Assembly (NCBI GenBank): GCA_947464665.1
Contig: CANHXV010000001.1
Location: 1-53,491 of the forward strand
Reading direction: 5' to 3'
Length of the DNA stretch: 53,491 nt
From: Comamonadaceae bacterium
Lineage (GTDB): Bacteria > Pseudomonadota > Gammaproteobacteria > Burkholderiales > Burkholderiaceae_C
Below, in pieces: positions 1-41,392 of the stretch (within the stretch, counting starts at the first letter, position 1; each line of letters begins with the position of its first letter). Position numbers and translations under genes: made by a program. A model generated the notes under the pieces. It was not told where the DNA came from and searched no databases. It worked only from the letters and a program-made list of their open reading frames with translations.

Positions 1-371
1 ACATCAATGACTTGATGCCAATCTTCTTTGGACATATTGAAGAAAAATCGATCGCGCAAAATGCCTGCGTTGTTGATCACGCAATCGATGCGCCCATAAG
101 TGTCTACGGCCAGTTGCACCATGCGTGCCGCCGCATCCCAATCCGCCACGCTTTCACCATTGGCTATGGCTTCTCCCCCAGCAGCCTTGATTTCATCAAC
201 CACGCTTTGGGCACGCTTGTTGTCTGTGCCAACACCGTCCAAAGAGGCACCTAAATCGTTGACCACGACCTTGGCACCTTCGCGGCCCAATGCAAGTGCA
301 AATTCACGGCCAATACCGCCGCCTGCCCCTGTGACCAAGACGACTTTATCTTTGGCAAATCCTGACTTCAT
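1..371 (-). CDS. SDR family oxidoreductase (runs off the window edge; 3' part missing)
   Basis: Not in the ORF track. Manual translation from ATG at 371 gives MKSGFAKDKVVLVTGAGGGIGREFALALGREGAKVVVNDLG...INNAGILRD, with TGxxxGIG and NNAG motifs. The ATG overlaps the stop of the upstream gene (ATGA). Confidence 0.93.
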   Translation of the reverse strand, partial: MKSGFAKDKVVLVTGAGGGIGREFALALGREGAKVVVNDLGASLDGVGTDNKRAQSVVDEIKAAGGEAIANGESVADWDAAARMVQLAVDTYGRIDCVINNAGILRDRFFFNMSKEDWHQVID

Positions 372-1165
372 TTTTCGTCATCCTGTTTGGGCCGCATGTG
401 TTCAGTGGCCACTTCTTCAATGCGATGCCATACCTCTTGCGCCATGGGGTTGCGCGATTCTTCTAAGATGTGTCCCACCAAGCCCACCGCGCGCGCCATC
501 ACGCCCAAACCGCGACAAATCTTCCAATCAAACCCCATCTCGCAGCAAAGTGCACCAATGGCACCTGTCGCGTTCATCGGCATGGGTTTACCTGAGACCA
601 AACTGGCTTGGGCAGCCACGGCGTCCATCAGCTTGAGATAAGGTCCATCGAATCCGGTTTCCACTGCAATTTGCTTCAGACGGGGTGTGCGGGGATCAAT
701 TGGCTTGTGAAAAGGATGCCCAATTCCCGGCACTATGGCACCGCGGCTTTTGTAAGAATCGACCACCTTCACCGCCAAGGCTTGGAGGTCCTGCTGAGGT
801 TCTTTAGAAGGCATGGTTTCATAAAGGAGCTTGGCAGCACCCTCAATGCTGCCCACAAACACGGTGCCTAAACCATTCAAGCCGGCCGCCACGGCGCCTT
901 GTAGCGACTCTGGTGCCCCCAAATAGGTCATGCGGGCCACCAAAGCGCTAGGTGTAATGCCGTGCTCAACCAGAGTAACCACCATGGCGTTGAACATGCG
1001 AGATTCATTGGGATTGGGAAAACGGCCTGTCAGCTCCAAAAAGCCCATGTCTCCTAAGTTCAGGTGGCCTAGAATTTCATTGGGGAAATCCTTGCCAAAG
1101 AGTGTGATGCTCGAGGCGTCGCTCCACCCAATGTCTGTCCGTATACTCTTTTGCTTGCGTGCCAC
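368..1165 (-). CDS. Citryl-CoA lyase / citrate synthase-like protein
   Basis: Motifs LVEHGITPSAL, GIGHPFHKPIDPR, NATGAIG and RAVGLVGH. Start moved to GTG at 1165, which has an AGGAGG RBS upstream (ORF track extends to 1240). Confidence 0.85.
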   Translation of the reverse strand: MARKQKSIRTDIGWSDASSITLFGKDFPNEILGHLNLGDMGFLELTGRFPNPNESRMFNAMVVTLVEHGITPSALVARMTYLGAPESLQGAVAAGLNGLGTVFVGSIEGAAKLLYETMPSKEPQQDLQALAVKVVDSYKSRGAIVPGIGHPFHKPIDPRTPRLKQIAVETGFDGPYLKLMDAVAAQASLVSGKPMPMNATGAIGALCCEMGFDWKICRGLGVMARAVGLVGHILEESRNPMAQEVWHRIEEVATEHMRPKQDDEK

Positions 1166-1259
1166 TCTTGGCCTCCTGTCCTTTGGATGACCTATCCTAT
1201 GCCGGTGAATGCCAGACAACAAGTCAAATAATCTGAGCAATTGTTAAAAGGAAATTCAA

Positions 1260-2147
1260 ATGCGAGTGAATCTCAAGGTGTTATCGACCTTTCTGGCCGT
1301 GGCAGAGAACGAGAGCTTTCGCAAGGCCGCAGAGCAAACCAATATCTCTTTGCCAGCTGTGAGCATGCAGATCAAGCAGTTGGAGGAACGCTTGGGTGTG
1401 GCTTTGCTGCAGCGCACCACCCGCAAAGTGGTGCTAACCCATGAAGGCGAAAAGTTAATGATCAGCACGCGCAAAGCGATGGCCGAAATTGATGCTGCAC
1501 TGTTAAGCATTGAGCAAGCGGCCAATGCGCAACAAGGCAATTTGGTTTTTGCATGTGTGCCGACAGTGGCAAGTACCCGCCTGCCCACACTGGTGACCGA
1601 ATTTGCCAGAAACTATCCAGGGATTTCTGTGGGCATTCGAGAAACGGCTCAACCTGAATTGTTGGAAGCCATTCGAAAAAGAGAGGTTGACTTTGGCATT
1701 GGGCCCATGCCAGAAAAAATAGGGGTATTTCAATGCACACCTCTGTTTGAAGACCCTTACGTGGCCTTGGTCCCAGAAGACCATCCACTGGCCGATAAAA
1801 ACGGAGTTTCTTTAAGGGAACTCACCAAAATCTCACCTTCTCTGTTGATGCTGGGTTCTTCACAATTCCAACAACAATTGAATGAAGTCCTCCTCAAAAA
1901 CAAGATCAGTCTTGAGCGCAATTACGACTTCACGCACGTCAGTACCATGGCCGCCATGATTGAAGCGGGCTTAGGTGTGGGCATTTTGCCAAAGGTGGCA
2001 GTGCCTCGACAGACGTCTCTCAAAGTGGTCAATATCGTTCGCCCCGTCATGTCTCGCACCATTGCCATTATTTCAATGCGAGGCCATTCTTTGTCGACGG
2101 CCTCCCAGCGTTTCGTTGATATGTGCAATGAGGTTTTAAAAGCCTAA
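1260..2147 (+). CDS. LysR family transcriptional regulator
   Basis: N-terminal HTH (SFRKAAE...SLPAVSMQIKQLEERLGVALLQRTTRKV), 295 aa, divergent from the lyase/SDR genes. Confidence 0.96.
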   Translation: MRVNLKVLSTFLAVAENESFRKAAEQTNISLPAVSMQIKQLEERLGVALLQRTTRKVVLTHEGEKLMISTRKAMAEIDAALLSIEQAANAQQGNLVFACVPTVASTRLPTLVTEFARNYPGISVGIRETAQPELLEAIRKREVDFGIGPMPEKIGVFQCTPLFEDPYVALVPEDHPLADKNGVSLRELTKISPSLLMLGSSQFQQQLNEVLLKNKISLERNYDFTHVSTMAAMIEAGLGVGILPKVAVPRQTSLKVVNIVRPVMSRTIAIISMRGHSLSTASQRFVDMCNEVLKA

Positions 2148-2148
2148 T

Positions 2149-3636
2149 TTAATTGCGCAAAAAAGCGGGCAATTCATCCAAGATGAGGGTCTTGGTTTCT
2201 AGGTATGGCAACAACCCCTCCACCCCGCCCTCGCGGCCCAGGCCAGATTGTTTGAAGCCGCCAAAGGCAATGCTGAAATCACTGCGAAAAGCATTTTGGC
2301 CCACTGTTCCAGTTCGCAGTTGACGGCCGATGGCGTAGGCCCGCTCGGCATCGTGTGTGAACACAGATGCATTAAGACCATAGACTGAATCGTTGGCTGT
2401 CAAAACGGCGGCTTGTTCGTTCTCCACTGGAATAACCGACAGTACAGGCCCAAAAATTTCTTCCCGTGCAATGACTGAATTGTTGGAAATATTGCCGAAT
2501 ACAGTTGGCTCCACAAAATGACCGCGCGGGGTGTGCTGCGGCCGTTTACCACCCGTCACCAGCTTGCCTCCACCATCACAGCCTTTTGCAATGAAGCCCT
2601 CAACCCGCTCACGATGTTTGGCTGTGGCCAAAGGACCCATGCCAGTTTGCGCATCAAAGGGGTCGCCCACTTTAATTTGACCAAAATGATTCGCCATGGC
2701 TTCAAGCAATTGAGACTGCCGATGTTTAGAAACAATGATGCGTGTTAACGAAGAACAGGCTTGACCTGTGAGATAGGTTGCACTTTTGGAAAGTGACTGG
2801 GCCACCAAGTCAAGGTCATAGTCATCGAGAACAATGCCTGCAGATTTTCCGCCCAACTCTAAGGTAACACGCGCAATTCGTTCGCCGCAGATGGAGGCAA
2901 TTCGCTTGCCTGCCAGAGTTGAGCCAGTGAACGAAACTTTATCAACCCCTGAATGGCGCACCAAGTATTCAGACACTTGTCGGTCTGCGGTGAGCACATT
3001 GAAAACGCCAGGCGGAAGACCTGCTGCTTCACAAATTTCAGCCATCAAATAAGGTGAGCTTGGCGCCTCGGGTGAGGCTTTCAAAACCACAGCACAACCG
3101 GCCATGAGCGCAGGTGCAACTTTGAAAGTCATCAGCCGCAGTGGGCCATTCCAAGGAATGATGCAAGCAGCTACACCCACTGGTTCTCGAACCAGCAATC
3201 CAAAATTACCGCCGCCTTTGGGGTGATGCTTTTCTATGAAGGGAAATGTGTCGGCCAAACTGGCGTAATAGCGATAAGCATCACCCAGCGTTTTGGCTGT
3301 GACGCGAGCAGCGCTGTTCACCACGCCGGACTCAGTGGTCCAAACGCGGGCTAAATCTTCGCTACGACGGTCTAACTCATCAGCAATGGCGCGCATGTAA
3401 ACGGCCCGTTCGGCAGGCGTCATGCGGGGCCAGGGCCCTTCGTCAAATGCTTTTCGAGCAGCGGCCACTGCGCGGTCGACGTCGACCTCCTCCGCTTCCG
3501 GCACACTCAAAAAAGGATCCTCAGTCGCTGAATCAATGACTTGGATCCTGCGCGAACCTGAGGGCGCAATCCATTGGCCCCCAATAAAGAGCTTGTCTGG
3601 GTGAGCAAGATGAAAGGGACTCAAGTCAGTGCGCAT
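2149..3636 (-). CDS. Aldehyde dehydrogenase
   Basis: IIPWNGP, FTGST, LELGGKS, catalytic GQAC and EEIFGPV motifs. Confidence 0.96.
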   Translation of the reverse strand: MRTDLSPFHLAHPDKLFIGGQWIAPSGSRRIQVIDSATEDPFLSVPEAEEVDVDRAVAAARKAFDEGPWPRMTPAERAVYMRAIADELDRRSEDLARVWTTESGVVNSAARVTAKTLGDAYRYYASLADTFPFIEKHHPKGGGNFGLLVREPVGVAACIIPWNGPLRLMTFKVAPALMAGCAVVLKASPEAPSSPYLMAEICEAAGLPPGVFNVLTADRQVSEYLVRHSGVDKVSFTGSTLAGKRIASICGERIARVTLELGGKSAGIVLDDYDLDLVAQSLSKSATYLTGQACSSLTRIIVSKHRQSQLLEAMANHFGQIKVGDPFDAQTGMGPLATAKHRERVEGFIAKGCDGGGKLVTGGKRPQHTPRGHFVEPTVFGNISNNSVIAREEIFGPVLSVIPVENEQAAVLTANDSVYGLNASVFTHDAERAYAIGRQLRTGTVGQNAFRSDFSIAFGGFKQSGLGREGGVEGLLPYLETKTLILDELPAFLRN

Positions 3637-3672
3637 GGCAAATCAATCAATTAAAAATGAAGGCAAAACAAT

Positions 3673-4647
3673 TTAAGGTTTGAGTCCGAGTTCTTGCACC
3701 AAGGTAGCCGTAGCGGGACTTTCAAGTTGTACCGATTTTGCAAGCTCAACACCATCACGCCAATTGGTTTGAACACCCAAGCTCAACAATTTGTCTTTCA
3801 CCGCATCGGAAGTCACCGAAGCTTGCACATCGGATTGAATCTTCTTCAGCAAAGCGGGTGTCATGCCACGCGGTGCCAGCATGATATGCGATAGGCTGAC
3901 GCGCTGGTCTTTCATTCCGAGTTCTAGCAAGGTTGGCACATTGGGCAAGGTGCTCAAGCGACTGGGTGTGGTCACTGCCAAGGCTTTGAATTTGCCGTTT
4001 TGAATAAAGGGTAGATTGTTGGGAACAGCATCGACCGCCAATTGAATTTCACCGCCCATGAGGGCTTTGGTGGTGTCTGGGCCACTCTTGTAAGGCACCC
4101 AAGTGAATTTGATTTTTGCCTGCCGCGCAAATTGCTCTAAAAGCAGTTGTGTCACTGTTGCAGGACCGCCAGCATTCAAATCACTGGGCCGCGCTTTGGC
4201 CATGTCTATCAGGTCATTCAAGTTTTTGGCAGGCGATGTATCGCTCACCAACAACAACATGGGCACCGAGGTGAGTTGGCCTACATAGGTGAAATCATTG
4301 ACAGGATCGTAAGGCACTTTCGCCAGGGTGTGGGGCGTCAATGTCAGGGTGCTGTTGATGGCCATCAGCAAGGTGTACCCGTCTGGCGCTGCGCGCAGAA
4401 CTTCAGCGGCCGCAATAACGGTATCGCCACCAGGTTTGTTGTCTACCAAGACTTGTTGGCCCCAACGCTGTGACAAGTCTTGGGCAATGACCCGCGCTGT
4501 GACATCTGCCGTCCCGCCGGCACCAAAAGGAATGACCAAGCGCACGGTCCGATTAGGCCAAGATTGGGCTGCAGCGTTTAAACCAAAGATCAGCATCGAA
4601 GCACTTAGCAAGGCACCCAACAAGGTCTTGAATTGTTTTTTCATCAT
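3673..4647 (-). CDS. Bug/TctC tripartite tricarboxylate transporter substrate-binding protein
   Basis: Signal peptide, then WPNRTVRLVIPFGAGGTADV, VDNKPGG, APDGYTLL and VPYKSG. Confidence 0.94.
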   Translation of the reverse strand: MMKKQFKTLLGALLSASMLIFGLNAAAQSWPNRTVRLVIPFGAGGTADVTARVIAQDLSQRWGQQVLVDNKPGGDTVIAAAEVLRAAPDGYTLLMAINSTLTLTPHTLAKVPYDPVNDFTYVGQLTSVPMLLLVSDTSPAKNLNDLIDMAKARPSDLNAGGPATVTQLLLEQFARQAKIKFTWVPYKSGPDTTKALMGGEIQLAVDAVPNNLPFIQNGKFKALAVTTPSRLSTLPNVPTLLELGMKDQRVSLSHIMLAPRGMTPALLKKIQSDVQASVTSDAVKDKLLSLGVQTNWRDGVELAKSVQLESPATATLVQELGLKP

Positions 4648-4890
4648 GTCTCCAAGGTTGAAAAATTTTTCCTAGCAACTTTGAGGCTTGCAGGAAACGT
4701 ATCAAGCAGTATCCAAAGTTTGATGGCGACTGTGAATTCACTTTTACTGAAGAATTGTTCAGACTAAGGCGCCCTATCGCTTTAAGCATCATGCCAATAA
4801 GGCAATTTAATCATTGAACAAAGGTTAAGGAAATTCGACTTGTACCCAAGCGCATAGGGGGATAGCATTTGGGTTTTTGATTTCAAAGTC

Positions 4891-5952
4891 ATGCCCATGA
4901 AGAGCTATCAAATCGTAGACTGGGGTCAACCCTTAGAAGCTAGGCAAGTCGACATGCCCGTACCTCGTGGAAACGAGGTGTTGGTTAAAGTGGGCGCTGC
5001 TGGTTTGTGCCACAGCGACATCCACCTGCGCGATGGCTACTTCGATTTGGGTGGTGGCAAAAGACTCACTGCAGCCCAGTACGGCGCCAAAATGCCCATG
5101 ACCTTGGGTCATGAAATAGCCGGTACGGTGTTTCAGGTGGGCGAAGGCGTAAAGCAGGCCTGGACGGGTGCCAACGTGCTGGTCTACCCTTGGATTGGGT
5201 GTGGCAAGTGTGATGCATGCCAAGATTTGCGCGATACCGACTGCGAAGCCCAACGCAGCTTAGGCGCCAAAGCTGATGGTGGCTTTAGCGAATATGTGCT
5301 GGTACCCGATGCCAGATACCTGATTGACATTGGCCAGCTCGATATGCATGCTTCAGCCACTTTGGCATGCTCTGGCCTGACGGCATTTGGCGCCCTGAAA
5401 AAAATGCCCCCCATGAAACCCACCGATCGCATTTTGCTCATTGGCGCAGGCGGTTTGGGACTCTCTGCTCTGGCTGCAGCACGTCTAGTGACCAAGGCAG
5501 GTTTGGTGGTGGCCGACATTGACCCCATCAAATTGGAAGCCGCCAAACAACAAGGCGCCGATGTTATTTTTGACAATCGCACACCCGACACAGCGGCTGC
5601 ACTCAAGGCTGCAGCGGGTGGCCCTATTCGAGGTGTGATTGACTTTGTGGGCAGCGGAACAACAGCTTCGCTGGCCATGGGTGTAGCCGTCAAAGGCACT
5701 GTCATTGTGGTGGTGGGATTGATGGGTGGGAGCTTAGAAATTGCCTTGCCCTTGCTTTCACCGCGCAACCTTACCATTCGGGGCTCTCACGTAGGCACAT
5801 TCGATGAGCTCAAAGAGCTGGTGGAGTTTTCAAGAAATGGCCAGCTTCCTGGCATTCCTCTCACACGCCGACCCATGAGCGAAGTGAATGAGGCATTGAG
5901 CGATTTAGAGAACGGCAAGTCCGTAGGCAGGATTGTGCTTACCCCCAACTAA
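4891..5952 (+). CDS. Zn-dependent alcohol dehydrogenase (MDR family)
   Basis: GLCHSD, GHE, structural Zn motif CGKCDAC...C, and GAGGLG. Confidence 0.95.
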   Translation: MPMKSYQIVDWGQPLEARQVDMPVPRGNEVLVKVGAAGLCHSDIHLRDGYFDLGGGKRLTAAQYGAKMPMTLGHEIAGTVFQVGEGVKQAWTGANVLVYPWIGCGKCDACQDLRDTDCEAQRSLGAKADGGFSEYVLVPDARYLIDIGQLDMHASATLACSGLTAFGALKKMPPMKPTDRILLIGAGGLGLSALAAARLVTKAGLVVADIDPIKLEAAKQQGADVIFDNRTPDTAAALKAAAGGPIRGVIDFVGSGTTASLAMGVAVKGTVIVVVGLMGGSLEIALPLLSPRNLTIRGSHVGTFDELKELVEFSRNGQLPGIPLTRRPMSEVNEALSDLENGKSVGRIVLTPN

Positions 5953-5996: not shown

Positions 5997-6803
5997 TTAA
6001 TTCCAAGCCAACTGCCTTGAAATCATGCCGCACGTCGACAACAACTGTTGCGCGTGTTCTATGACCTTGCTTTCCATCCGATGCCTGGGCCCTGCAACGG
6101 CCACGGCCAAGGTTTCTGAGTTGACATTCAAAAAGGCAGACACGGCCCACACATCGGTTACGTTTTCACCGCGGGTCACAAAGTAGCCGCGCTTTCTGCT
6201 GGCCAAAATATCGGCAATCAAATCGTCTGCTGTTGTGATGGTGTTTTCGGTAATGCGTTTGAAATCTCGACCCAAGAGTTGACTGCGCAATTCAGCTTCT
6301 TTCAGACTGCCCATCAAGGCTTTGCCAATGGCACTCGCGTGCAAGGGTTTGAACTCTCCTGACTTAGACGAATACCTGATGGAGTTCAGGCTCTCAAACA
6401 CTTGCAAATAAATCACAGAATTGCCTTGACGCTTGCCCAAAATAATTGTCTCTTGGGTACTGTCCCGCAGCCGCTCCAACATTGGCATGACGTTCTCCAC
6501 AAAGGGGTCATGCGCATGAATATCACGGGCCACATCCAGCAAACGCCTAGTTGGATACAAAGCACGGGGTCGCGTGAGTGAATACAAAAAACCCCGCGCG
6601 ATCAGCGTTGCCACGATGGCGTGGCAACTGCTTTTGGGAATGGCCGTCATTTCTGCTAACTCAGTAAGAGACAGCGGTTTTTGAACACGTTGAAATGCAT
6701 CCAAGATGTCCAACATGCGTCCGATCGCAGTTACGGCTGTACCTGATGCACTCACTTGTTCGATATTTGGAACAAGTTCTTTTAATGTTGATTTTCTTTT
6801 CAT
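5997..6803 (-). CDS. IclR family transcriptional regulator
   Basis: HTH LSLTELAEMTAIPKSSCHAIVATL and the IclR motif PLHASAIGKALM. The true start may be GTG at 6755. Confidence 0.95.
   Translation of the reverse strand: MKRKSTLKELVPNIEQVSASGTAVTAIGRMLDILDAFQRVQKPLSLTELAEMTAIPKSSCHAIVATLIARGFLYSLTRPRALYPTRRLLDVARDIHAHDPFVENVMPMLERLRDSTQETIILGKRQGNSVIYLQVFESLNSIRYSSKSGEFKPLHASAIGKALMGSLKEAELRSQLLGRDFKRITENTITTADDLIADILASRKRGYFVTRGENVTDVWAVSAFLNVNSETLAVAVAGPRHRMESKVIEHAQQLLSTCGMISRQLAWN
6754..6777. promoter_or_regulatory. Candidate IclR operator, second copy
   Basis: Palindrome ACTTGTTC-GATATTTG-GAACAAGT, 60 bp from the similar site at 6816. Confidence 0.6.
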
Positions 6804-6815
6804 TTAAATTAAAGT

Positions 6816-6835
6816 TTGTTCGATTTATCGAACAA
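6816..6835. promoter_or_regulatory. Candidate IclR operator (PcaR/PobR-box-like)
   Basis: Perfect palindrome TTGTTCGAT-TT-ATCGAACAA between the divergent IclR and crotonase genes. Resembles the PcaR/PcaU-type GTTCGATAATCGCAC box with one extra central base. Confidence 0.75.
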
Positions 6836-6877: not shown

Positions 6878-7687
6878 ATGCAACATTCAAATTCACCAGC
6901 ACCAACGTCAGGGCAAGCGGGCCAAATACAAACGCGAGAAACGCCAGAGGGCGCAGTTTGGCTCACCATTAACCGCGCAGAAAAGCACAACGCACTGGCA
7001 CGACAGGTACTTTTGGACTTGGCGGCCCATGTAAGAGCGCTGGGTCAACAAGCGCATGTGCGGTACATCGTCATCACTGGCGCCGGCGACAAATACTTTG
7101 CAGCTGGCGGTGACCTGCGAGAACTTACCAACGTGCGCGACGCACACGCTGTCCACACCATGATGACGGACGCTTTTGGTTCACTTCAAGCAATACGCCA
7201 ATGTCCAGTCCCGGTCATCGCACTGCTCAATGGCGATGCCATTGGCGGTGGGGGCGAGTTGGCGGCTGCCTGTGACATGCGCCTCATGGCATCGCATGCG
7301 CGGATCGGTTATATCCAAGCCAAGCTGGCCATCACCTCGGCATGGGGGGGCGGCCCCGATTTGTTCAAACTGGTGGGCCCCGCTCGTGCCATGCGCATGA
7401 TGACGCGCTGCGAACTGATTGACGCAGCCACCGCTCAATCTTGGGGTTTGGCCGACGCCATCCTTTCGGATGGCGTTGACGGGTCAGACATTGCAGCCTT
7501 TTTGAAACCGCTGAACCATTGCTCAACGCTTGTGCTTCGCGGCATCAAGGCACAAGCCATCGCCGCTCGTTCAAACAGCAGTTGGGCTGAGCACCGGGAT
7601 ATCGAAGAGCAACATTTGGTCCGCACTTGGTTGCATGACGACCATTGGGCAGCCGCAGAAAAGCTGCTCAAAAAAACCAGCGCTTAA
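6878..7687 (+). CDS. Crotonase-superfamily protein, possibly an acylmalonyl-CoA decarboxylase
   Basis: FAAGGDL and AIGGGGELAAACDMR motifs. The second catalytic Glu of hydratases is replaced (IGYIQAKLAITSAWGG). Confidence 0.9.
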   Translation: MQHSNSPAPTSGQAGQIQTRETPEGAVWLTINRAEKHNALARQVLLDLAAHVRALGQQAHVRYIVITGAGDKYFAAGGDLRELTNVRDAHAVHTMMTDAFGSLQAIRQCPVPVIALLNGDAIGGGGELAAACDMRLMASHARIGYIQAKLAITSAWGGGPDLFKLVGPARAMRMMTRCELIDAATAQSWGLADAILSDGVDGSDIAAFLKPLNHCSTLVLRGIKAQAIAARSNSSWAEHRDIEEQHLVRTWLHDDHWAAAEKLLKKTSA

Positions 7688-7715: not shown

Positions 7716-9317
7716 GTGGCATCATTTTCTGAACCTCAGCTCGACAAGGTCAGTCGAAGTGGCATTGAAATTCCCGCCAGCGTCGACGCTGGCGCTGTGA
7801 ACGCCGACAAAATTGGCAAGGCAGGAGAATACCCATTCACTCGCGGTATTTTTCCAGATGGCTATCAAGGCCGCTTGTGGACCATTCGGCAGTACTCTGG
7901 TTTTGGAACTGCAGAAGAGTCGAATGAGCGCTACAAATTTCTTTTAGCCCAGGGCCAAACAGGCTTGTCGGTTGCGCTCGATTTACCAACACAGTGCGGC
8001 TACGACCCCACTCACCCCATGGCCAGACCCGAGATTGGGAAAGTGGGCGTGTCACTGTCGAATCTCTCTGAAGCAGAAATTCTCTTCAAAGACTTAGACC
8101 TTTCCAAAATATCCACGTCCTTCACCATCAACGGTACGGCCGCCATCATCTACGCCATGTATTTGGCTGTGGCCGACAAGCAAGGTGTGCACCGCTCCAA
8201 ACTGACTGGCACCATTCAAAATGATATTTTGAAGGAATACGTGGCACGAGGCACTTGGATTTTTCCGGTCAAGCCTTCTATGCGTCTCATTGCCGATTCC
8301 ATTTTGTATTCCAACGACGAAACACCGCGCTTCAACCCCATCAGCATTGCGGGCGCACACGTTCGAGATGCAGGTGCGACGGCTGCTGAAGAAATGGCCT
8401 ATACCTTGGCCAATGGCTTGGCGTATGTTGATGAATTGAACAGCCGCGGCGGAGACATTGAAAAGTTTGCAAAGCGCTTGTCCTTCTTTTTCTATGTTCA
8501 CATGGACTTCTTTGAGGAGATTGCCAAGTTCCGCGCGGGACGCCGAATTTGGGCCAAGCTGATGAAGGAACGCTATGGTGCTCAAGATCCCAAAGCACAA
8601 CACTTTCGATTTGGTGTGGTCTGCGGTGGTTCTTCCTTAGTGGCGCCGCAAGCCTACAACAATGTGGTGCGAGTGGCCGTTGAAACCATGGCCGCAGTAT
8701 TTGGAGGCGCACAGTCTATTTTTACATGTGCCATGGACGAAGCCTTCCAAATTCCAACCGAGTTCAGTGCCGAACTGGCTGTGCGCACACAGCAAATCAT
8801 TGCCTATGAGTCAGGCATCGCTCGAAGCGTCGACCCCTTGGGTGGAAGCTACGTGCTGGAGCAATACACCGACAAGATGGAAGAAACCATTTTGGGCATC
8901 ATGCATGAGATTGATGCCTATGGCGGCGTAACCAAAGCAATTGAAGATGGATGGCTACAACTTCGTTTGGCCAGACGTGGTTTAGAAAGAAAAGTCGATA
9001 CGGACAGTGGTAAGAATGTGGTGGTGGGTCAAAACCATTTTCGCAAAGCCGATGAAGAGATTGGTGTCGGTGATGTTTTCAAACTCGATCCCACCGTCGC
9101 ACAACGCGCGTTAGAAAAATTTGAACGCACACTCAATTCCCGTGATCAAGTGCAAGTGGACCATTCATTGGCTCAACTTTCAAAAGCGGCTGCAGATGAC
9201 AAAGTCAATGTCATGCCTTACCTCGTCGACTGCTGTCATGCCTACGCTACTGTGGGTGAGATGGTGGCTTGTCTGAAAAAAGAATGGGGCGAATTTCAGG
9301 AGCCCGTCAATTTATGA
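7716..9317 (+). CDS. B12-dependent acyl-CoA mutase, large (substrate-binding) subunit
   Basis: GEYPFTRG, WTIRQYSGF, GLSVALDLPTQ, TIQNDILKEY and DPLGGSY. GTG start. Confidence 0.95.
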   Translation: MASFSEPQLDKVSRSGIEIPASVDAGAVNADKIGKAGEYPFTRGIFPDGYQGRLWTIRQYSGFGTAEESNERYKFLLAQGQTGLSVALDLPTQCGYDPTHPMARPEIGKVGVSLSNLSEAEILFKDLDLSKISTSFTINGTAAIIYAMYLAVADKQGVHRSKLTGTIQNDILKEYVARGTWIFPVKPSMRLIADSILYSNDETPRFNPISIAGAHVRDAGATAAEEMAYTLANGLAYVDELNSRGGDIEKFAKRLSFFFYVHMDFFEEIAKFRAGRRIWAKLMKERYGAQDPKAQHFRFGVVCGGSSLVAPQAYNNVVRVAVETMAAVFGGAQSIFTCAMDEAFQIPTEFSAELAVRTQQIIAYESGIARSVDPLGGSYVLEQYTDKMEETILGIMHEIDAYGGVTKAIEDGWLQLRLARRGLERKVDTDSGKNVVVGQNHFRKADEEIGVGDVFKLDPTVAQRALEKFERTLNSRDQVQVDHSLAQLSKAAADDKVNVMPYLVDCCHAYATVGEMVACLKKEWGEFQEPVNL

Positions 9318-9730
9318 GCAACAACACACAAACCATGCCCTTGGCGGGGCGCCGTATTTTGATCGGCAAACCAGGACTAGATGGTCATGACATTGGTGCA
9401 AAAATAATCGCCTTAACGCTTCGCGATGCCGGCGCAGAAGTCATCTACACAGGTTTGCGACGAAGCCCATTGCAAATTGCACAAGTTGCAATTGACGAAG
9501 GTGTGGATGCTGTGGGTCTCAGCATTTTGTCGGGTAGTCACAAAGAGTTGGTAGAAAACGTCATGGCTGAATTGAAAAATCTCAAGGCCGACAGCGTCAA
9601 GGTTTTTGTGGGCGGGACCATTCCCAAATCTGACCATGCGTTCCTCAGTCAGCTGGGAGTTGCTGCTGTATTTACTGCTGATATGTCCTTGGAAGAAGTC
9701 GTACAAGAACTAGCGATTCAACTTTCATGA
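9314..9730 (+). CDS. Acyl-CoA mutase small subunit (cobalamin-binding domain)
   Basis: KPGLDGHDIGAK (DxHxxG), GLSILSGSH and VGGTIP. ATG at 9314 overlaps the large-subunit TGA. Confidence 0.95.
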   Translation: MSNNTQTMPLAGRRILIGKPGLDGHDIGAKIIALTLRDAGAEVIYTGLRRSPLQIAQVAIDEGVDAVGLSILSGSHKELVENVMAELKNLKADSVKVFVGGTIPKSDHAFLSQLGVAAVFTADMSLEEVVQELAIQLS

Positions 9731-10896
9731 ACAAGCCAACGGGTTTTTCCGCTGGGCCGCTGGCGGGCATTCGCATCATTGAAGTTGGCCACATGTTGGC
9801 TGGGCCTTATTGCGGCTTGTTACTGGCTGACATGGGGGCAGAAGTTATCAAAATCGAACCTCGCAATGGCGACATTGCGCGTCACGTTAGCCCTCACTTT
9901 ATTGGCCCCCACAACGCCTACTTTGCAAGTTTGAACAGAAACAAGCAAAGCATTGTGTTAGATCTGGCAAGTCATGAGGGGCGGCAGGAACTTGAAAAAT
10001 TAGTCTCCAACTCTCACGCGCTGATCACCAATTTACGACCGTCAGCCATACGCAAACTGGGACTGACCTACGACAGCCTCGGCATGCACAATCAGAAGTT
10101 TGTGTGCGTTGCACTCACTGGTTACGGACTAGAAGGCCCCTATTCAGAAAATCCAGCATATGACTACGTCATACAAGCTCTTACAGGCGTGATGTCACTG
10201 ACTGGGGACCCCTCAGCGCCACCCACCAAGGCTGGCTATTCGGCTGTAGACAACTCAGCCGGCATGGTGGCAGCCATGGGGCTTTTGGCAAAAATTGTAG
10301 AAGGAAAGGGCGGCCAAGTGGATGTGGCGATGTATGACGTGATGTTGTCACAGCTCAACTATTTGGTGGGTGCATCCCTGAATGCAAACGAAGAGATTAA
10401 ACGTTACGCTCATTCATCACACCCCTACATGGTGCCTGCGCAAATTTTTCTAACCGCTAAAGGCTGGCTAACGTTGTTCATCACCCATGACAAATTTTGG
10501 GCAAAATTTTGTCATGAAATTGGAAAACCTGAGTGGATTACAGACGAAGTATTTGCAAGTATGGCATCAAGACGTCAGAACAGAGATGTCGTGTTAACAG
10601 CCATCATGGCCATTCTAAAGACTCAAAGCGCTGAAATTTGGGTCAAGCGTTTGGCACCGCTAGGGCTGGTCGTTTCCGAAGTGAGCACACTTAACCAGGC
10701 GCTAGACAGCGAACTCACATCAGCACGCGGACTTGTGGTTAATCTCGTCAACGACTCGGGAGAGCAAACGCTTCCTTTGCGCGCCATTGGAAGCCTTGTA
10801 CGATTTAATGGGTATCAACCTCAATACCGATTGCCACCCTTGCTTGACGAACATCACGAAGTCATTCTTGGAAAGCCCAAGGAGGCTCTAACTTGA
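9727..10896 (+). CDS. Family III (CaiB/BaiF) CoA-transferase
   Basis: GPLAGIRIIE, AGPYCGLLLADMGAEVIKIE, LNRNKQSI, NLRP and AYDYVIQA. Confidence 0.95.
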   Translation: MNKPTGFSAGPLAGIRIIEVGHMLAGPYCGLLLADMGAEVIKIEPRNGDIARHVSPHFIGPHNAYFASLNRNKQSIVLDLASHEGRQELEKLVSNSHALITNLRPSAIRKLGLTYDSLGMHNQKFVCVALTGYGLEGPYSENPAYDYVIQALTGVMSLTGDPSAPPTKAGYSAVDNSAGMVAAMGLLAKIVEGKGGQVDVAMYDVMLSQLNYLVGASLNANEEIKRYAHSSHPYMVPAQIFLTAKGWLTLFITHDKFWAKFCHEIGKPEWITDEVFASMASRRQNRDVVLTAIMAILKTQSAEIWVKRLAPLGLVVSEVSTLNQALDSELTSARGLVVNLVNDSGEQTLPLRAIGSLVRFNGYQPQYRLPPLLDEHHEVILGKPKEALT

Positions 10897-11822
10897 GCGA
10901 TTCTGAGCAACGCACAAAGCTGAATCGATTTGCATTGGGACGCCAATTGACAGCCCTGGCAAATACCAGTCCGCAGGAGATGCTGGACAAAATGCCGTCT
11001 GATGCCGCAAAGCATCAAGCCCAGCGTATTGGCCTGACGGGTGCGCCGGGCTCCGGCAAAAGCACATTGGGCGGTCAGCTTGCAATGCACCGCCTCATTC
11101 GAGAAAGTGCTGTGCAACGATTAGGTATTTTGGCCATAGACCCCAGCAGTCCAAAATCCGGTGGCGCTATCTTAGGCGATCGAATCCGCATGGATGAATT
11201 ACCAGGGAGCGCTGAACTGTTCATTCGCTCGCTAGGCTCAAGAAGTACTGCCGACGGACTGACAGACAACCTTCCAGAAATGCTGGACCTCATGGACAGC
11301 TTTGAATTTGATGAAGTCTTGATTGAAACCGTTGGCGTCGGCCAGGTCGAATATGCAGTGCGTTTACAAGTCGACACGCTGGTGTTGGTTCTTTTACCCA
11401 ACAGCGGCGACATGGTGCAAGCCATGAAATCAGGCATCATGGAAATGCCCGACATCTTTGTGGTCAACAAATCTGACCTTTCAGGTGCAGATCGAACTGC
11501 CGCAGACATTGAGCGAATCACAGCTTTGAGAAAAATAACCAAGGTGCAATGGCACCCTCAAGTGCTATTGGTTTCAAATTCCAAACCGGAAAGTATTGTG
11601 GCGCTGTCAAAAGAAATTGACCGTCACCAAAATTGGCTTATCACTTCGGGTGAACAACAAAAAATTCAAATTGATCGGGCGCGCTACAGGCTTCGACGAA
11701 TTATCGAACGTCGGGTGCAGCAGGTCATTGATGAACTTGGCGACACAGACATGAAACAAGCATTACCCGAGCAGTTTGAAAAGGTCATCAGCAAACTCCG
11801 AGGGGCACGAAATTCAATTTAA
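10893..11822 (+). CDS. meaB: MeaB/ArgK G-protein chaperone of B12 mutases
   Basis: GAPGSGKST, DPSSPKSGGAILGDRIRM, ETVGVGQ and NKSD, adjacent to the mutase genes. Confidence 0.92.
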   Translation: MSDSEQRTKLNRFALGRQLTALANTSPQEMLDKMPSDAAKHQAQRIGLTGAPGSGKSTLGGQLAMHRLIRESAVQRLGILAIDPSSPKSGGAILGDRIRMDELPGSAELFIRSLGSRSTADGLTDNLPEMLDLMDSFEFDEVLIETVGVGQVEYAVRLQVDTLVLVLLPNSGDMVQAMKSGIMEMPDIFVVNKSDLSGADRTAADIERITALRKITKVQWHPQVLLVSNSKPESIVALSKEIDRHQNWLITSGEQQKIQIDRARYRLRRIIERRVQQVIDELGDTDMKQALPEQFEKVISKLRGARNSI

Positions 11823-12449: not shown

Positions 12450-13274
12450 TTAAATGGGTTGATCGCCTTGCAGCGTAATCCGGTGCAAGACGCGGCGGAA
12501 GCCATGATAGTCGTTCACGGGATTGTGCTGTGCGCAACGGTTGTCCCAAAATGCGACTGCATCTGGCTCCCAAGACCATCGGCAGGTGAACTCAGGCTTG
12601 ACTTGATGCTCAAACAAAAAGGACAACAAGGATGCGCTTTCCTTGTCTGTTAAGCCTTCAATGCCAGCGGTGTGCGCCACATTGACGTAGAGCGCTTTGC
12701 GGCCAGTCTCGGGGTGAGTGCGAACCACAGGATGCGAACTACTGAAACTTTTGGGGGAAGATTCAATGCCATCTGACTTGATACGATCTTCCCTGGTTTT
12801 GGAAACATCTGCTTTGGCCGAGGTGTTGACTCCCTTCAAGCCATGTAACAAACGTTGCATGGTGTCTGACAAGGCCTCGTAAGCGGCATATTGGCAAGCA
12901 AACAAGGTGTCACCGCCATAAGGGGGAATTTCTTTCGAAAGCAACATCGAACCCATGGGCGGTATATCTAAATAAGCAGTGTCAGAGTGCCATACACCAC
13001 CAAAGTTGACCTTCTCGTGTTCTAACTTTTTCACTTCGATGATTTGCGGAAAGTCTTCGAAGCCTTTGACGAAGGGATATTCAATGGGCTCGCCCATGGC
13101 TTTGGCAAAGTTCATGAATTGTTGCGAAGTGAGCGCTTGATTGCGAAAAAATATGACGCTGTTTTTTAAAAATACATCACGAACTTCTTTCGTTAAATCT
13201 GGCGACATGGATTGCGTTAAATCAACCCCAGAAATTTCAGCGCCCAAGCTACCCGCAATTCTTTTGATTTTCAT
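12450..13274 (-). CDS. TauD/TfdA family Fe(II)/2-oxoglutarate dioxygenase
   Basis: LGAEISGVDL, WHSD, GGDTLF, HPVVRTHPETGRKALYVN and WDNRCAQH. Confidence 0.95.
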   Translation of the reverse strand: MKIKRIAGSLGAEISGVDLTQSMSPDLTKEVRDVFLKNSVIFFRNQALTSQQFMNFAKAMGEPIEYPFVKGFEDFPQIIEVKKLEHEKVNFGGVWHSDTAYLDIPPMGSMLLSKEIPPYGGDTLFACQYAAYEALSDTMQRLLHGLKGVNTSAKADVSKTREDRIKSDGIESSPKSFSSSHPVVRTHPETGRKALYVNVAHTAGIEGLTDKESASLLSFLFEHQVKPEFTCRWSWEPDAVAFWDNRCAQHNPVNDYHGFRRVLHRITLQGDQPI

Positions 13275-13500
13275 AGCCAATTTTCTCGAACTTAATTAAA
13301 CAGCAGTCGAACCCGTAATGCTGGATCAACTCTGCGATTGGGTTTTTATTCTAATACCGATTTTTTGTTATAACAGAAGTGCCAAGGATGCAGTGGATTG
13401 GCTACTGACCTGCCATCTTTAGACGAACCAATGATGGATAATTAGTACGTTTTTTTGACCCTGACCGAGTGTGTTGAAAATCAGTTACCAGAAGCAGTCC

Positions 13501-24407: not shown

Positions 24408-25292
24408 ATGACCATGATTCCTAGGGAGCGTGCGCCTTACAGTGCTATCGTCGATCGTCCAAAAATGAAATTACCCGACAACGGGAAGATCATTGTTTGG
24501 ACCATTGTTAACTTGGAGGTTTGGGACATTAGCAAACCCATGGCTCGCCAAGTCATTCCCGCCCCTACCGGAGCGGTTCTCTTGCCCGATGTGCCCAACT
24601 GGAGTTGGCACGAATACGGCATGCGCGTCGGATTCTGGCGCTTTCACGACCTTTACCAAAAGTTGGGCATAAAGCCAACGCTGTCCATCAATGCCCGCGT
24701 TTGCGAAGACTACCCCCGAGTTGCGCAAGCCTGCCTTGATGCCGGTTGGGAATTCATGGGCCACAGTTACCAACAAGGACCTATTCATCTTGAGCCTGAT
24801 CAGCCAGCAATGATCAAGCGGTCTCTGGACGTGATTGAAAAATTCACTGGTAAACGGCCAGTTGGGTGGCTTGGCCCCGGCCTGACCCAAACCAATGAAA
24901 CCCCGGACCATCTGGCTGCGGCGGGCATCAAATACATTGGCGACTGGGTTTACGACGAAGAGCCGACAGAGATCCAAACCGAAAATGGCCCGCTCATTAC
25001 CATTCCTTATACCGTTGAAAACAATGATATTCCGATGATGGCTGTTCAGCACCATGAGGCTTCTTACTGGACGCAAAAGTGCATCGATACTTTTGATCGC
25101 CTATACGAGGAAGGCTCAGATCGCCCTCGCGTGATGGCGATTGCCATCCACCCTTACATTTCCGGGCAGCCTTTCCGCATCAAATACCTCGAAGAGGTCT
25201 ATCAGCACATGGCCAAACACACGGGTGTCATGCATTGGAATGGTGAGCAAATTCTCGACTGGTATCAAACCGCCAGAAAGACAGCCAAGTGA
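24408..25292 (+). CDS. Polysaccharide deacetylase (CE4)/PuuE-like amidohydrolase 1
   Basis: VNLEVW, NWSWHEYGMRVGFWR, WEFMGHSY, GWLGPGL and IHPYISGQPFR. Confidence 0.9.
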   Translation: MTMIPRERAPYSAIVDRPKMKLPDNGKIIVWTIVNLEVWDISKPMARQVIPAPTGAVLLPDVPNWSWHEYGMRVGFWRFHDLYQKLGIKPTLSINARVCEDYPRVAQACLDAGWEFMGHSYQQGPIHLEPDQPAMIKRSLDVIEKFTGKRPVGWLGPGLTQTNETPDHLAAAGIKYIGDWVYDEEPTEIQTENGPLITIPYTVENNDIPMMAVQHHEASYWTQKCIDTFDRLYEEGSDRPRVMAIAIHPYISGQPFRIKYLEEVYQHMAKHTGVMHWNGEQILDWYQTARKTAK

Positions 25293-25987
25293 TGAACTTC
25301 GCAGTTCAAGTGCCAGAAGTCGTTGCAGTTCCGGTTGCAGGGACTGGCACATTTTTTCCAGTCAGAAGAATATATTGTGTGGGGCGTAATTATCTGGAGC
25401 ATATTCGCGAAATGAAGGAGGCGGATGAGCGTGATCCGCCGTTCTTCTTTCAGAAGCCGCGTGACGCACTTGTTCTCAACGGTCAGTTGGTTCCCTATCC
25501 ACCCCAAACGAATGACTTCCAGTTTGAAGTCGAGTTGGTCGTAGCCATTGGTAAGTCTGGTAGAGCTATCAGTAAAGAAAAGGCGCTGGATCATATTTTT
25601 GGGTACGCGGTGGGCTTTGATATGACACGACGTGATCGCCAACGTGAATCTGGAAAAAATGGTTTGCCATGGGAAATTGGCAAAAGTTTCGATGCTTGTG
25701 CACCTTGTGGAAACTTGCGCACGGTTGCCGATGTTGGGCACATCGACCATGGGCGAATTGCAGTGTCGGTCAATGGACAAGTTAAACAGGATTCACTGAT
25801 TGAAAAAATGATCTGGAATGTGCCCGAGATTGTGAGTAACCTGTCTCATTTGTATGATTTGGTGGAGGGCGATCTAATCTACTCTGGAACACCGGCAGGT
25901 GTTGCGCCCGTTCTAACCGGCGACATTCTCCGAGGTACGGTTGATGGATTAATCGATCTGGAAATCACTATTGGTACAAGGACCTGA
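25289..25987 (+). CDS. Fumarylacetoacetate hydrolase family (acylpyruvate/fumarylpyruvate hydrolase-like)
   Basis: RRIYCVGRNY..H, PFFFQKP, EVELVV, DMTRRD, WEIGKSFD and SGTPAGV. Confidence 0.93.
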   Translation: MMNFAVQVPEVVAVPVAGTGTFFPVRRIYCVGRNYLEHIREMKEADERDPPFFFQKPRDALVLNGQLVPYPPQTNDFQFEVELVVAIGKSGRAISKEKALDHIFGYAVGFDMTRRDRQRESGKNGLPWEIGKSFDACAPCGNLRTVADVGHIDHGRIAVSVNGQVKQDSLIEKMIWNVPEIVSNLSHLYDLVEGDLIYSGTPAGVAPVLTGDILRGTVDGLIDLEITIGTRT

Positions 25988-25991
25988 TCAC

Positions 25992-26858
25992 ATGAAGCCT
26001 CTGGAAAGAATCAAGTACTCTCCGATCAATGCTCGAAAGCCGTTAAAGCTGCCAGGTGGAGCACGCATGGTGGTCTGGAATATCGTGAACATTGAAGAGT
26101 GGGACATCGATCAAACGATGCCTAGAACGGTACTGACACCCCCGGCAGGTGGCTCTCCAATGCCGGATATTCCCAACTGGGCGTGGCATGAATACGGTAA
26201 CAGGGTTGGTTTCTGGCGGATGTTAAAGGTACTGGATGAACTCGACATCAAGGCAGTGCTTGCTATCAATGGTTCCGCCATCAAAGCCTATGAACCTATT
26301 TCTCAGGCCGCGCTAGACAGGGCATGGGAATTCATGGGCCATGGGTATACCCAGAGAAATATGCAGAAGGTTGAAAACGAGCAGGAAGACATTGCCAAAA
26401 CAACCGAGGCGATCAGGGCATTCACTGGAAAACGTCCGCGCGGTTGGTTGGGTCCTGGCTTGACTGAAACCTGGCATACGCCGGATTTGTTATCTGAGAA
26501 TGGATATGAGTACGTCTGTGATTGGGTACTCGATGACCAGCCTGTTGTCTTGAAAACGCGCCATCAACCTATTGTCAATGTGCCGTACACGCAAGAGTGC
26601 AACGACGTGGCGATGATGCTGATTCAGCACCATACTGCCTCTGAATACTACAGACGTGGCATCGATCAATTTGAGCAAATTTACGAAGACTCAGTCGATT
26701 CTGCCCGCGTGATGGCCTTGGTGGTTCATCCTTACATCATGGGTGCGCCGCACAGGCTCAAATACTACAAGCAATTGTTGACGGAAATTCGTCAGCGCAA
26801 AGATGTTTTGTTCTGGACGGGCGAGCAGATTCTTGACTGGTATGGGTCGCAGGTTTAG
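25992..26858 (+). CDS. Polysaccharide deacetylase (CE4)/PuuE-like amidohydrolase 2
   Basis: VNIEEW, NWAWHEYGNRVGFWR, WEFMGHGY, GWLGPGL and VHPYIMGAPHR. Paralog of 24408..25292. Confidence 0.9.
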   Translation: MKPLERIKYSPINARKPLKLPGGARMVVWNIVNIEEWDIDQTMPRTVLTPPAGGSPMPDIPNWAWHEYGNRVGFWRMLKVLDELDIKAVLAINGSAIKAYEPISQAALDRAWEFMGHGYTQRNMQKVENEQEDIAKTTEAIRAFTGKRPRGWLGPGLTETWHTPDLLSENGYEYVCDWVLDDQPVVLKTRHQPIVNVPYTQECNDVAMMLIQHHTASEYYRRGIDQFEQIYEDSVDSARVMALVVHPYIMGAPHRLKYYKQLLTEIRQRKDVLFWTGEQILDWYGSQV

Positions 26859-40198: not shown

Positions 40199-41392
40199 TC
40201 AGCGGCTGACCCGAACCACGGCATCGGCACGTTGGTGCAGATCGGGCAGCAACTCCAGCCCCAAACCTGGCTTGTCGTTCAGGCTGATCATGCCGTTCTT
40301 CACTTGCGGCAATTCGGTCACCAGCTCCTTGTACCAGCCAGAATAAAAGGCACGCACGCTTTCCTGGATCAGCGCATTGGGCGCGTGCAACGACAAGTGC
40401 GTGGACGCAGCCCACACCACCGGCCCTGTGCAGTCGTGCGGGGCCACAGGCAGCTGCCAGGCGTCGGCCATGGCAGCGATTTTGCGTGCCTCTGTCAGGC
40501 CTCCGCACCAGCTCAAATCGAGCATGACGACGCCTGCTACGCCAGTTTGCAAATAATCCTTGAAACCCCATTTGTAACTCAGCGTTTCGCTCGCACAAAT
40601 CAACGCCTTGCAGTCCACCGCATACTGCTTGAGCAAATCGAGGCTGTCCATGCGAATCGCGTCCTCGTGCCAGAAGGTGTCGAACTCTTGCAGGGCACGT
40701 GAAATCTTTTGCGCCATGGGCAAGCGCCACAGGCTGTGGAACTCGACCATGATGTCCATCTTGTCGCCCACAGCATTGCGTATTTTTCGAAACGGCTCCA
40801 ACGCGGTGTTCAGGTCTTGCGGGCTGATGTATTGTCCGTGCGACTTTTCAGCAGCCACATCAAAGGGCCAAATCTTCATGCCCGTGATGCCTTCGCTCAA
40901 AAGCGACTCGGCCACCTCGTCGGCGCGGTGCAAAAAGCCTTGCAGGTCTTCGTAAGGCCCGGCGCCCTGCCCCAAGCCCCAGTTACTGCTGGTCTGGTTC
41001 ACGTTGCTGCGGATGTATTGGTAGCCCGCGCAGGTGTTGTAGACGCGAATTTCGTCGCGGCTTTTGCCGCCCAAAGCGGTGTACAACGGCATGCCAGCGG
41101 CTTTGCCAAAAATGTCCCACAGCGCGATGTCCACCGCCGAATTTCCGCGAGTCTCAACACCGGACCCACGCCAACCCAGATAGCCCGTGATGTCGCGCTG
41201 GCGTGACTCGATGGCCAGTGGATCCTGGCCCACCAGTTTGGGCGCGACCCATTCGTGCAAATACGCCTCCACCGCCTGCGCGCCCATGAAGGTTTCACCC
41301 AGGCCCATCAGGCCCTCGTCAGTGTGCAGACGCACCCAGATGATGTTGGGAAATTCACCCAAGCGGATAGTTTCGAGTTGTGTGATTTTCAT
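40199..41392 (-). CDS. Mandelate racemase/enolase superfamily protein (probable sugar-acid dehydratase)
   Basis: GLGET, SAVDIALWD, LGGKSR, KIWPF, MVEFH, WHED, ASET and APHDC. Start refined to ATG 41392. Confidence 0.92.
   Translation of the reverse strand: MKITQLETIRLGEFPNIIWVRLHTDEGLMGLGETFMGAQAVEAYLHEWVAPKLVGQDPLAIESRQRDITGYLGWRGSGVETRGNSAVDIALWDIFGKAAGMPLYTALGGKSRDEIRVYNTCAGYQYIRSNVNQTSSNWGLGQGAGPYEDLQGFLHRADEVAESLLSEGITGMKIWPFDVAAEKSHGQYISPQDLNTALEPFRKIRNAVGDKMDIMVEFHSLWRLPMAQKISRALQEFDTFWHEDAIRMDSLDLLKQYAVDCKALICASETLSYKWGFKDYLQTGVAGVVMLDLSWCGGLTEARKIAAMADAWQLPVAPHDCTGPVVWAASTHLSLHAPNALIQESVRAFYSGWYKELVTELPQVKNGMISLNDKPGLGLELLPDLHQRADAVVRVSR

Follow-up and report, generated by a model that had tools for sequence, protein, structure and literature searches.

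What does a cobalamin-dependent acyl-CoA mutase act upon when it keeps the residues that bind a carboxylate and has changed at seven positions of its pocket? The question is raised by a split mutase encoded at positions 7716 to 9730 of a 53,491-nucleotide stretch of DNA from a Comamonadaceae bacterium (contig CANHXV010000001.1 of assembly GCA_947464665.1, here G000), which we call the window. Few specificities have so far been established for acyl-CoA mutases, and each of the newer ones (ethylmalonyl-CoA mutase, Ecm; 2-hydroxyisobutyryl-CoA mutase, HCM; pivalyl-CoA mutase, PCM; and IaaGH) revealed a pathway or a biocatalyst for chemically difficult skeleton rearrangements. We find that the window enzyme belongs, within a known enzyme family, to a real and conserved subclass that has apparently not been characterised and for which we can only infer candidate substrates.

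A split acyl-CoA mutase with a rewritten pocket

The large subunit, with the substrate-binding TIM barrel and the rewritten pocket, is encoded on the forward strand at 7716..9317 (533 aa, GTG start). The cobalamin-binding small subunit follows on the same strand at 9314..9730 (138 aa) across an ATGA overlap; its start was taken as the ATG at 9314, not the TTG at 9269, it scores above the TIGR00640 cut-off, and its DxHxxG motif reads DGHDIG. The large subunit scores 633 bits against TIGR00641/PF01642 (cut-off 303.8), and its AlphaFold model, built from a 21-sequence alignment (mean predicted local distance difference test, pLDDT, 77), has the ordinary mutase barrel, with Foldseek template modelling (TM) scores of 0.83-0.84 to 4R3U, human MMUT and 1REQ; 4R3U is the best match in the Protein Data Bank by sequence as well as by fold (TM 0.83). 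By domain content and fold, the window protein is assigned to the adenosylcobalamin (AdoCbl)-dependent acyl-CoA mutase family, whose features are present: the DxHxxG B12-binding domain, a MeaB gene, and residues Q197, H244 and E370.

We numbered residues by alignment to P. shermanii MutB (1REQ), the residue number being the chain position plus 1. Relative to 1REQ, six residues are kept (reference = window: Y89=Y60, Q197=Q168, R207=R178, H244=H215, R326=R298, E370=E342) and seven are changed (S241A, Y243A, G289Y, H328G, Q330V, H364F, N366C). A first-pass annotation of this DNA had reported that the carboxylate-binding Tyr and Arg are retained, and Y89 and R207 are indeed among the kept residues; the motifs on which it relied translate as it had read them (RQYSGF at 7887-7904, KEYVARG at 8232-8252, ISIAGAH at 8340-8360, FGVVC at 8610-8624 and IFTCA at 8718-8732). 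On the model, the substituted residues alternate along four successive barrel strands (209-212, 255-260, 299-302 and 335-339) or fall just past their ends, a pattern that, together with known methylmalonyl-CoA mutase (MCM) structures, suggests that they point into the pocket. Three of the changed residues (Y243, Q330 and N366) are ones that in MCM we take to touch the adenosyl group or to shield radicals.

Compared with a generic split MCM, polar residues at eight pocket positions drop from seven to one, and the summed side-chain volume at these positions changes by -92 Å3 in the window enzyme, -84 Å3 in the Ecm-type and -197 Å3 in the IaaH-type, all of them crude sums. The first-pass annotation missed G289Y and H364F; because these restore part of the bulk, the pocket appears less enlarged than remodelled and stripped of polarity. 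Its proposed substrate, a dicarboxylic CoA ester with a bulky alkyl or aryl group, survives in part: the carboxylate clamp and the operon fit a substituted succinyl- or malonyl-CoA, but the choice of substituent was too wide, because a volume change near that of the Ecm-type and about half that of the IaaH-type favours alkyl over aryl. The pocket thus points to a small apolar alkyl group. The annotation also omitted the crotonase partner described below, which is the best clue to the direction of the reaction.

The rewritten motifs mark a separate clade

We examined 81 mutase rows (79 genome loci) that were fetched by peptides other than the tested motifs, one of which, CAMDEAFQ, overlaps the end of IFTCA. 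The whole rewritten set is carried by 19 rows, and 62 keep SGYH / H-x-Q / LHTN, so the three motifs are normally conserved, as had been claimed, and their joint replacement is therefore not chance or drift. A metagenome scan with the AGAH motif found at least 120 loci. Conservation was counted in a pooled set of 148 open reading frame (ORF) rows, in which a few entries repeat the window or one plasmid. Where covered, the pocket positions are fixed (G328 in 141/142, V330 in 141/141, F364 in 102/102), as are the clamp and radical residues (Y89 in 101/101, R207 in 145/146, E370 in 102/102), and residue 366 varies (48 Cys, 52 Ala, 2 Ser). Y243A is fixed by construction in this set, which was selected on AGAH; one Streptomyces member has Ser. 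The best 120 homologues of the large subunit are 84-98% identical to it and carry generic names only, and databases label the large subunit methylmalonyl-CoA mutase.

For reference we used 4R3U, 1REQ, E. coli ScpA, Xanthobacter Xaut_5021 and Xaut_5043 (which we take to be HCM and PCM, respectively), the S. meliloti pSymB MCM (presumably BhbA), and L225, an unannotated Methylobacterium aquaticum plasmid gene that we assign to the Ecm-type by its motifs; for IaaGH we took the mutases of iaa-like clusters (L092-L099), which we recognised by their gene content. The clade is supported at 97/99 by IQ-TREE (LG+G4, 26 of 65 rows) and at SH-like 93 by FastTree (all 65 rows), separate from MCM, HCM, PCM-type, Ecm-type and IaaGH-type mutases and without tight clustering with any of the mutases compared; the window enzyme also groups apart from ScpA/BhbA and the generic split MCMs. 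Thus, the earlier view that the enzyme matches none of MCM, ICM, HCM or Ecm holds in the trees, and it holds at the pocket positions for MCM, IcmF, HCM, Ecm-type, PCM-type and IaaGH-type alike.

Clade members occur in Burkholderiales, Alpha- and Gammaproteobacteria, Actinomycetota and Methylomirabilota, and their distribution is patchy. Isolates with the cassette include Diaphorobacter sp. HDW4B, Paraburkholderia caribensis MBA4 and Sulfitobacter dubius DSM 109990. A mutase match at E<=1e-100 (mostly 42-45% identity) is present in 251/300 genomes of the window's family, only 2/300 of which carry the clade; in the family of Mycolicibacter G600 the clade mutase is found in 18/121 genomes. The window DNA is present in lake, freshwater, wastewater and estuary metagenomes. 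In four metatranscriptomes the only matches were pieces of 150-260 nt at depth 2-11, which fell within iclR and the genes of the small subunit, the CoA-transferase and MeaB; no piece was specific to the large subunit. A literature search found no characterisation of the clade, although trees or supplements of key mutase papers may already include it, and the text consulted from PMC11599936, PMC2847961, PMC11659651 and PMC8669784 contains nothing on it. MSMEG_4881 is named a methylmalonyl-CoA mutase gene in PMC10066036, a naming that, with the model name F420_MSMEG_4879, suggests that M. smegmatis may carry the cassette.

The mutase is paired with a one-glutamate crotonase

Upstream of the mutase, at 6878..7687 on the forward strand, lies the gene of a crotonase-fold partner. 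Among 36 aligned partners, the first catalytic Glu (E127) is present in all 36 and the oxyanion-hole motifs are kept, while the second hydratase Glu is absent from 36/36, being Gln (Q147) in 35 and His in one; W156 is present in 35/36, and W251 and H256 are also conserved. The hydratases LiuC and 3KQF carry Glu opposite Q147. E. coli ScpB, a crotonase-fold methylmalonyl-CoA decarboxylase according to PMC3850637, keeps the first Glu and lacks the second, as the partner does (23% identity). By analogy, the partner is predicted to be a malonyl-CoA-type decarboxylase. Its model (pLDDT 94) matches generic crotonases. The partner may also resemble ECHDC1; its cluster and Atlas names are generic.

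The crotonase is a dedicated partner of the mutase, judged by co-occurrence: in the window's family it is found in 3/300 genomes, including both genomes with the mutase, and in the family of G600 the identical 18/121 genomes carry both genes.

The wider crotonase subfamily (L253-L256, P0121-P0270) has E-Q-W or E-H-W with the WGG motif in 122/150 representatives. In mycobacteria, a Gln/His+WGG crotonase lies divergent from a ligase-amidohydrolase-FadD3-like module.

The mutase lies in a compact regulated operon

A divergent iclR precedes the operon, which runs from the crotonase through the large and small mutase subunits and the CoA-transferase to MeaB; stop and start codons overlap at the last three joints. 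The CoA-transferase (9727..10896, forward strand) is of family III (CaiB/Frc) and 26% identical to the IaaL-type transferase of L094; the MeaB-type GTPase chaperone (10893..11822, forward strand) scores 231.8 bits against TIGR00750, just below the 240.75 cut-off; and the IclR-family regulator (5997..6803, reverse strand) has BhcR/PcaR-type NCBIfam matches below cut-off. Two palindromes are putative IclR operators 60 bp apart, operator 1 at 6816..6835 and operator 2 at 6756..6775, the latter with a GTTC-N8-GAAC core and overlapping the start of the iclR ORF. Of the 14 intergenic regions, the window's among them, that separate a divergent iclR from the crotonase, 11 have such a pair at a spacing of 60-61 bp, and a best site with <=5 mismatches occurs in 12/14 real compared to 5/700 shuffled intergenic regions. 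The two palindromes are the two top position weight matrix matches in the 1.9-Mb assembly G000, in which this search found no further strong operator. A stricter pattern failed to recover the known sites of G024, G173 and G594 and produced a single, unrelated match, and a scan for sigma-70 promoters and terminators gave signal at chance level.

We counted neighbours at 104 other loci, using only those with enough flank. At proteobacterial-type loci, the crotonase is directly upstream in 42/45 and the small subunit adjacent in 42/42, the CoA-transferase and MeaB are downstream in 26/30 and 24/26, and an IclR gene lies within 1.6 kb upstream in 23/33. At the remaining loci the corresponding counts are 16/36 for the crotonase, 36/37 for the small subunit, 23/27 for the CoA-transferase and 0/25 for MeaB, and actinobacterial loci also add acyl-CoA dehydrogenases. 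Four annotated plasmids repeat the five-gene run, followed in three by a TctC or TRAP transporter and in one by a cobalamin adenosyltransferase; a carboxylate transporter of TctC, TRAP or ABC type often comes after the cassette. In Proteobacteria the cassette has no constant dehydrogenase, epimerase or thiolase: among the 91 proteobacterial neighbours scanned (of 177 candidates) there was neither an acyl-CoA dehydrogenase nor an epimerase, and thiolase-like genes turned up only twice, each on its own.

Several patchy neighbours were not taken as pathway members: a 2-oxoglutarate-Fe oxygenase with a binding protein (7 loci), an FMN hydroxy-acid dehydrogenase (4) and TauD-like genes (6). In mycobacteria, a carboxyltransferase takes the crotonase's place only at L008/L010. 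The window has a TauD-family dioxygenase gene at 12450-13280. Orthologues of it with 70-71% identity lie beside the cassette in L154 and L136, as do more distantly related TauD-like genes in L001, L087 and L143.

A proposed route and its alternatives

A CoA-transferase, a clamped mutase and a one-Glu crotonase without a redox enzyme amount to the logic of the E. coli scpA-argK-scpB-scpC operon, which, according to PMC3850637, likewise combines a mutase, a MeaB-type GTPase, a crotonase-fold enzyme and a CoA-transferase. With moderate confidence, we propose an scp-like route from alkylsuccinate through its succinyl-CoA and alkylmalonyl-CoA to acyl-CoA plus CO2, every reaction of which is our reading of the observed genes, gene order, overlapping codons, palindromes, substitutions and mutase-crotonase pairing. 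The CoA-transferase would activate a branched (alkyl-substituted) succinic acid, the B12 mutase would move the thioester (a 1,2-shift) to give a substituted malonyl-CoA, and the crotonase-fold partner would decarboxylate this to a branched acyl-CoA for ordinary catabolism. In the mutase, the Y89/R207 clamp would hold the free carboxylate; H328G, Q330V, N366C/A and Y243A would open apolar space for substituents on the radical-bearing carbon, part of which G289Y and H364F would refill from neighbouring strands. Irreversible loss of CO2 would pull the mutase equilibrium, as in the scp operon, and could thus explain why no dehydrogenase, thiolase or epimerase is fixed. The window operon differs from scp in that its CoA-transferase is of family III, its crotonase is only 23% identical to ScpB, and the cassette has its own IclR and often a transporter.

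Our lead substrate candidates are 2,2-dimethylsuccinate, 2,3-dimethylsuccinate, and ethyl- or isopropylsuccinate. The dimethyl-, ethyl- and isopropylsuccinates would yield acyl-CoAs of the branched-chain amino-acid type, so that no further dedicated genes would be needed; 2,2-dimethylsuccinate, for example, would give isopropylmalonyl-CoA and then isovaleryl-CoA. A bolder version, to which we give limited credence, is a new class that removes quaternary carbons, converting 2,2-dimethylsuccinyl-CoA through a tertiary radical to isopropylmalonyl-CoA and then to isovaleryl-CoA with a new, biotin-free family of crotonase decarboxylases.

Several observations weigh against the scp-like route. ScpB, at 23% identity, is not a close homologue of the partner, and the nearest solved structures of the partner are all hydratases. 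In mycobacteria, 80-160 kb separate the crotonase from the mutase (12 cases with both on one contig), and the 18/18 match could reflect co-inheritance of a large lipid-catabolic island, related genomes not being independent. The Gln/His+WGG subfamily is larger than the cassette and is found without the mutase in G264. An F420-dependent LLM reductase (TIGR03564), which falls outside the proposed scheme, is present at 18/27 of the remaining loci and is the adjacent gene in mycobacteria; at L005, L115 and L152 the mutase has neither a crotonase nor a CoA-transferase next to it; and no neighbouring gene names the substrate. Finally, pLDDT falls below 50 at residues 304-318 and 329-354 of the large-subunit model.

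The route could instead run in reverse or with another partner chemistry, which we regard as possible but doubtful: a substituted malonate or quaternary-carbon dicarboxylate would be converted to a succinyl- or glutaryl-CoA (for example, dimethylmalonyl to methylsuccinyl, or 2,2-dimethylsuccinyl to 3-methylglutaryl), and the crotonase would be a single-Glu hydratase, an isomerase, a C-C hydrolase or a thioesterase. Mutases are reversible, the hydratase structures nearest to the crotonase would fit, as would the LLM reductase and acyl-CoA dehydrogenases at actinobacterial loci, and Y243 is also replaced (by Gln) in the PCM-type Xaut_5043, which acts on a quaternary carbon if it is indeed a PCM. 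However, proteobacterial cassettes have no fixed dehydrogenase to form an enoyl-CoA, the second hydratase Glu is missing in every aligned partner, and a PCM-type gene was not found in 10/10 further clade-bearing genomes, several of them incomplete metagenome-assembled genomes (best match 39% identity).

HCM (HcmAB, 4R3U), IcmF (4XC6) and the PCM-type Xaut_5043 are 34-45% identical to the window enzyme. HCM and PCM share with it the split architecture with MeaB, and the PCM-type also lacks Y243. In HCM, ICM and PCM, Y89 is replaced by I/F/L and R207 by Q/N (the latter shown for HCM and the PCM-type), so that they lack the carboxylate clamp, both residues of which the window enzyme keeps.

A link between the cassette and pivalyl-CoA mutase is unsupported: PCM-like genes are neighbours of the cassette in L083 and L174, but none was found in the 10 further genomes. 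PCM-type genes occur in 9/300 genomes of the window's family. At L174 (10579-13947), two tandem PCM-like large subunits are co-directional with the cassette and have one MeaB in common, and at L125 (4305-5957) a long-branch mutase of no assigned class lies beside the cassette.

Another explanation, which we consider unlikely, is an aryl- or cycloalkyl-succinyl-CoA mutase with IaaGH-like chemistry in a separately evolved pocket, acting for example on phenylsuccinyl-CoA (to benzylmalonyl-CoA) or on cyclohexane-1,2-dicarboxyl-CoA (to the 1,1-isomer). IaaGH-type mutases (41-45% identical to the window enzyme) are also split, keep Y89 and R207, have lost H328, Q330, H364 and N366, and have a family-III CoA-transferase nearby; FastTree suggests the IaaH-type as sister group (SH-like 92), and strong cyclohexanecarboxyl-CoA dehydrogenase matches are present in 3/5 cassette genomes (one above cut-off). 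In contrast, the sister relation has no support in IQ-TREE, where the IaaGH-type forms its own 100/100 clade; the IaaH-type keeps Y243, has I328, G330, A364 and N287, and shows roughly double the loss of volume; the two types of CoA-transferase share only 26% identity, and no iaa genes lie near the cassette, which lacks the hydantoinase and Mo-hydroxylase neighbours. No match to the cyclohexane dehydrogenase was found in G000 (66% complete), in G594 or in G597, and 26/200 family genomes have the gene in any case. A bzdO search aimed at Aromatoleum-like genomes gave 0/301.

In the other split-mutase regions from genomes of the window's family, 8/13 have a VSVCGYH / MIAGG / ALC mutase, which in the four annotated loci lies among hydantoinase and Mo-hydroxylase subunits, presumably members of the iaa cluster; the annotated loci variously add an acyl-CoA dehydrogenase, a family-III CoA-transferase, a ligase, a binding protein or a thiolase. 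These iaa-like indoleacetate clusters (L092-L099, in G272, G123, G047, G212, G103, G230, G246 and G131) thus occur in at least 8/300 genomes of the family. Their gene content matches the iaa cluster of PMC8360864, and according to that paper the IaaGH route proceeds to oxidative decarboxylation by the acyl-CoA dehydrogenase IaaF. On comparison with these iaa-like clusters, we reject the reading that the window mutase is itself IaaGH, given its separate clade, its other motifs and the 26% identity of the CoA-transferases.

Non-canonical AdoCbl radical chemistry, such as an elimination in place of the 1,2-thioester shift, is quite improbable. Y243, Q330 and N366, with the adenosyl and radical-shielding roles we presume, are all replaced together, seven polar pocket residues have become one, and an F420 reductase is attached in Actinomycetota. 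Still, E370, H244, Q197, MeaB and the small-subunit partners are retained, and such losses are compatible with a mutase assignment because the IaaH-type lacks Q330 and N366 and the PCM-type lacks Y243 and N366.

Least probable of all, and very hard to credit, is a divergent but ordinary MCM in a second scp-like succinate/propionate operon: although the enzyme has the database name and an scp-like layout, and shares with MCMs (1REQ, human MMUT 2XIJ, E. coli ScpA) the barrel fold (TM 0.84) and Y89, Q197, R207, H244 and E370, it is split and only 41-44% identical to these, all five of the MCM pocket residues Y243, H328, Q330, H364 and N366 are replaced, at the seven substituted positions the departure from the MCM residue is constant from phylum to phylum, it scores 546 against the MCM equivalog cut-off of 876 (a model built on the fused form), G000 already encodes a canonical MCM and IcmF, and only 2 of the 251 family genomes with a mutase match carry this clade. 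G000 also encodes an adenosyltransferase, and methylmalonyl-CoA epimerase had no match above cut-off in this 66% complete assembly.

The Ecm-type (L225, 37% identity) has in common with the window enzyme the Y89/R207 clamp, a near-equal change in pocket volume and H328G, the only shared rewritten position; it keeps Y243 and Q330, has P366, is separate in both trees, and its expected companions, crotonyl-CoA carboxylase and methylsuccinyl-CoA dehydrogenase, are absent from the window context. MatBQ and ActD, of matlystatin and actinonin biosynthesis, are split hexylmalonyl-CoA mutases that, in PMC5719088, are proposed to turn alkylmalonyl- into alkylsuccinyl-CoA within biosynthetic clusters with crotonyl-CoA carboxylase/reductase, epimerase and nonribosomal peptide synthetase genes; we set them apart from the window enzyme by gene context, not by sequence.

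Other mutases and other genes of the window

Two further split mutases of no assigned class keep Y89/R207 but have other rewritten pockets and a CoA ligase nearby, one with an S328/S330/A366 pocket (L091:8074-10044, G022) and one with S243/A330/R364/A366 (L100:7932-9608, G013). In the window, positions 368-5952 hold a citryl-CoA-lyase-family gene (PRK06224, above cut-off), a LysR gene, an aldehyde dehydrogenase, a TctC-like receptor and a Zn alcohol dehydrogenase, which are not kept beside the cassette elsewhere. From their ORFs, positions 24408-26858 hold two paralogous polysaccharide-deacetylase-like genes on either side of an FAH-like one, part of a long catabolic run of amidase/ABC/Mo-hydroxylase-like genes, and positions 40199-44368 form a possibly acquired block of higher GC (0.55) that includes a mandelate-racemase-like enolase and a TRAP transporter.

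Significance

The clade is spread over at least three phyla under the annotation methylmalonyl-CoA mutase, in a compact unit with a regulator, an operator and often a transporter, so that its substrate should be directly findable by IclR ligand screening or a coupled assay. An assignment of function would extend to a large unassigned crotonase subfamily. If the removal of quaternary carbons from 2,2-dimethylsuccinyl-CoA is true, the cassette would be a previously unrecognised B12-dependent sink for gem-dimethyl terpenoid fragments in freshwater, marine and soil bacteria, and in environmental mycobacteria would supply the last step of a lipid-catabolic island.

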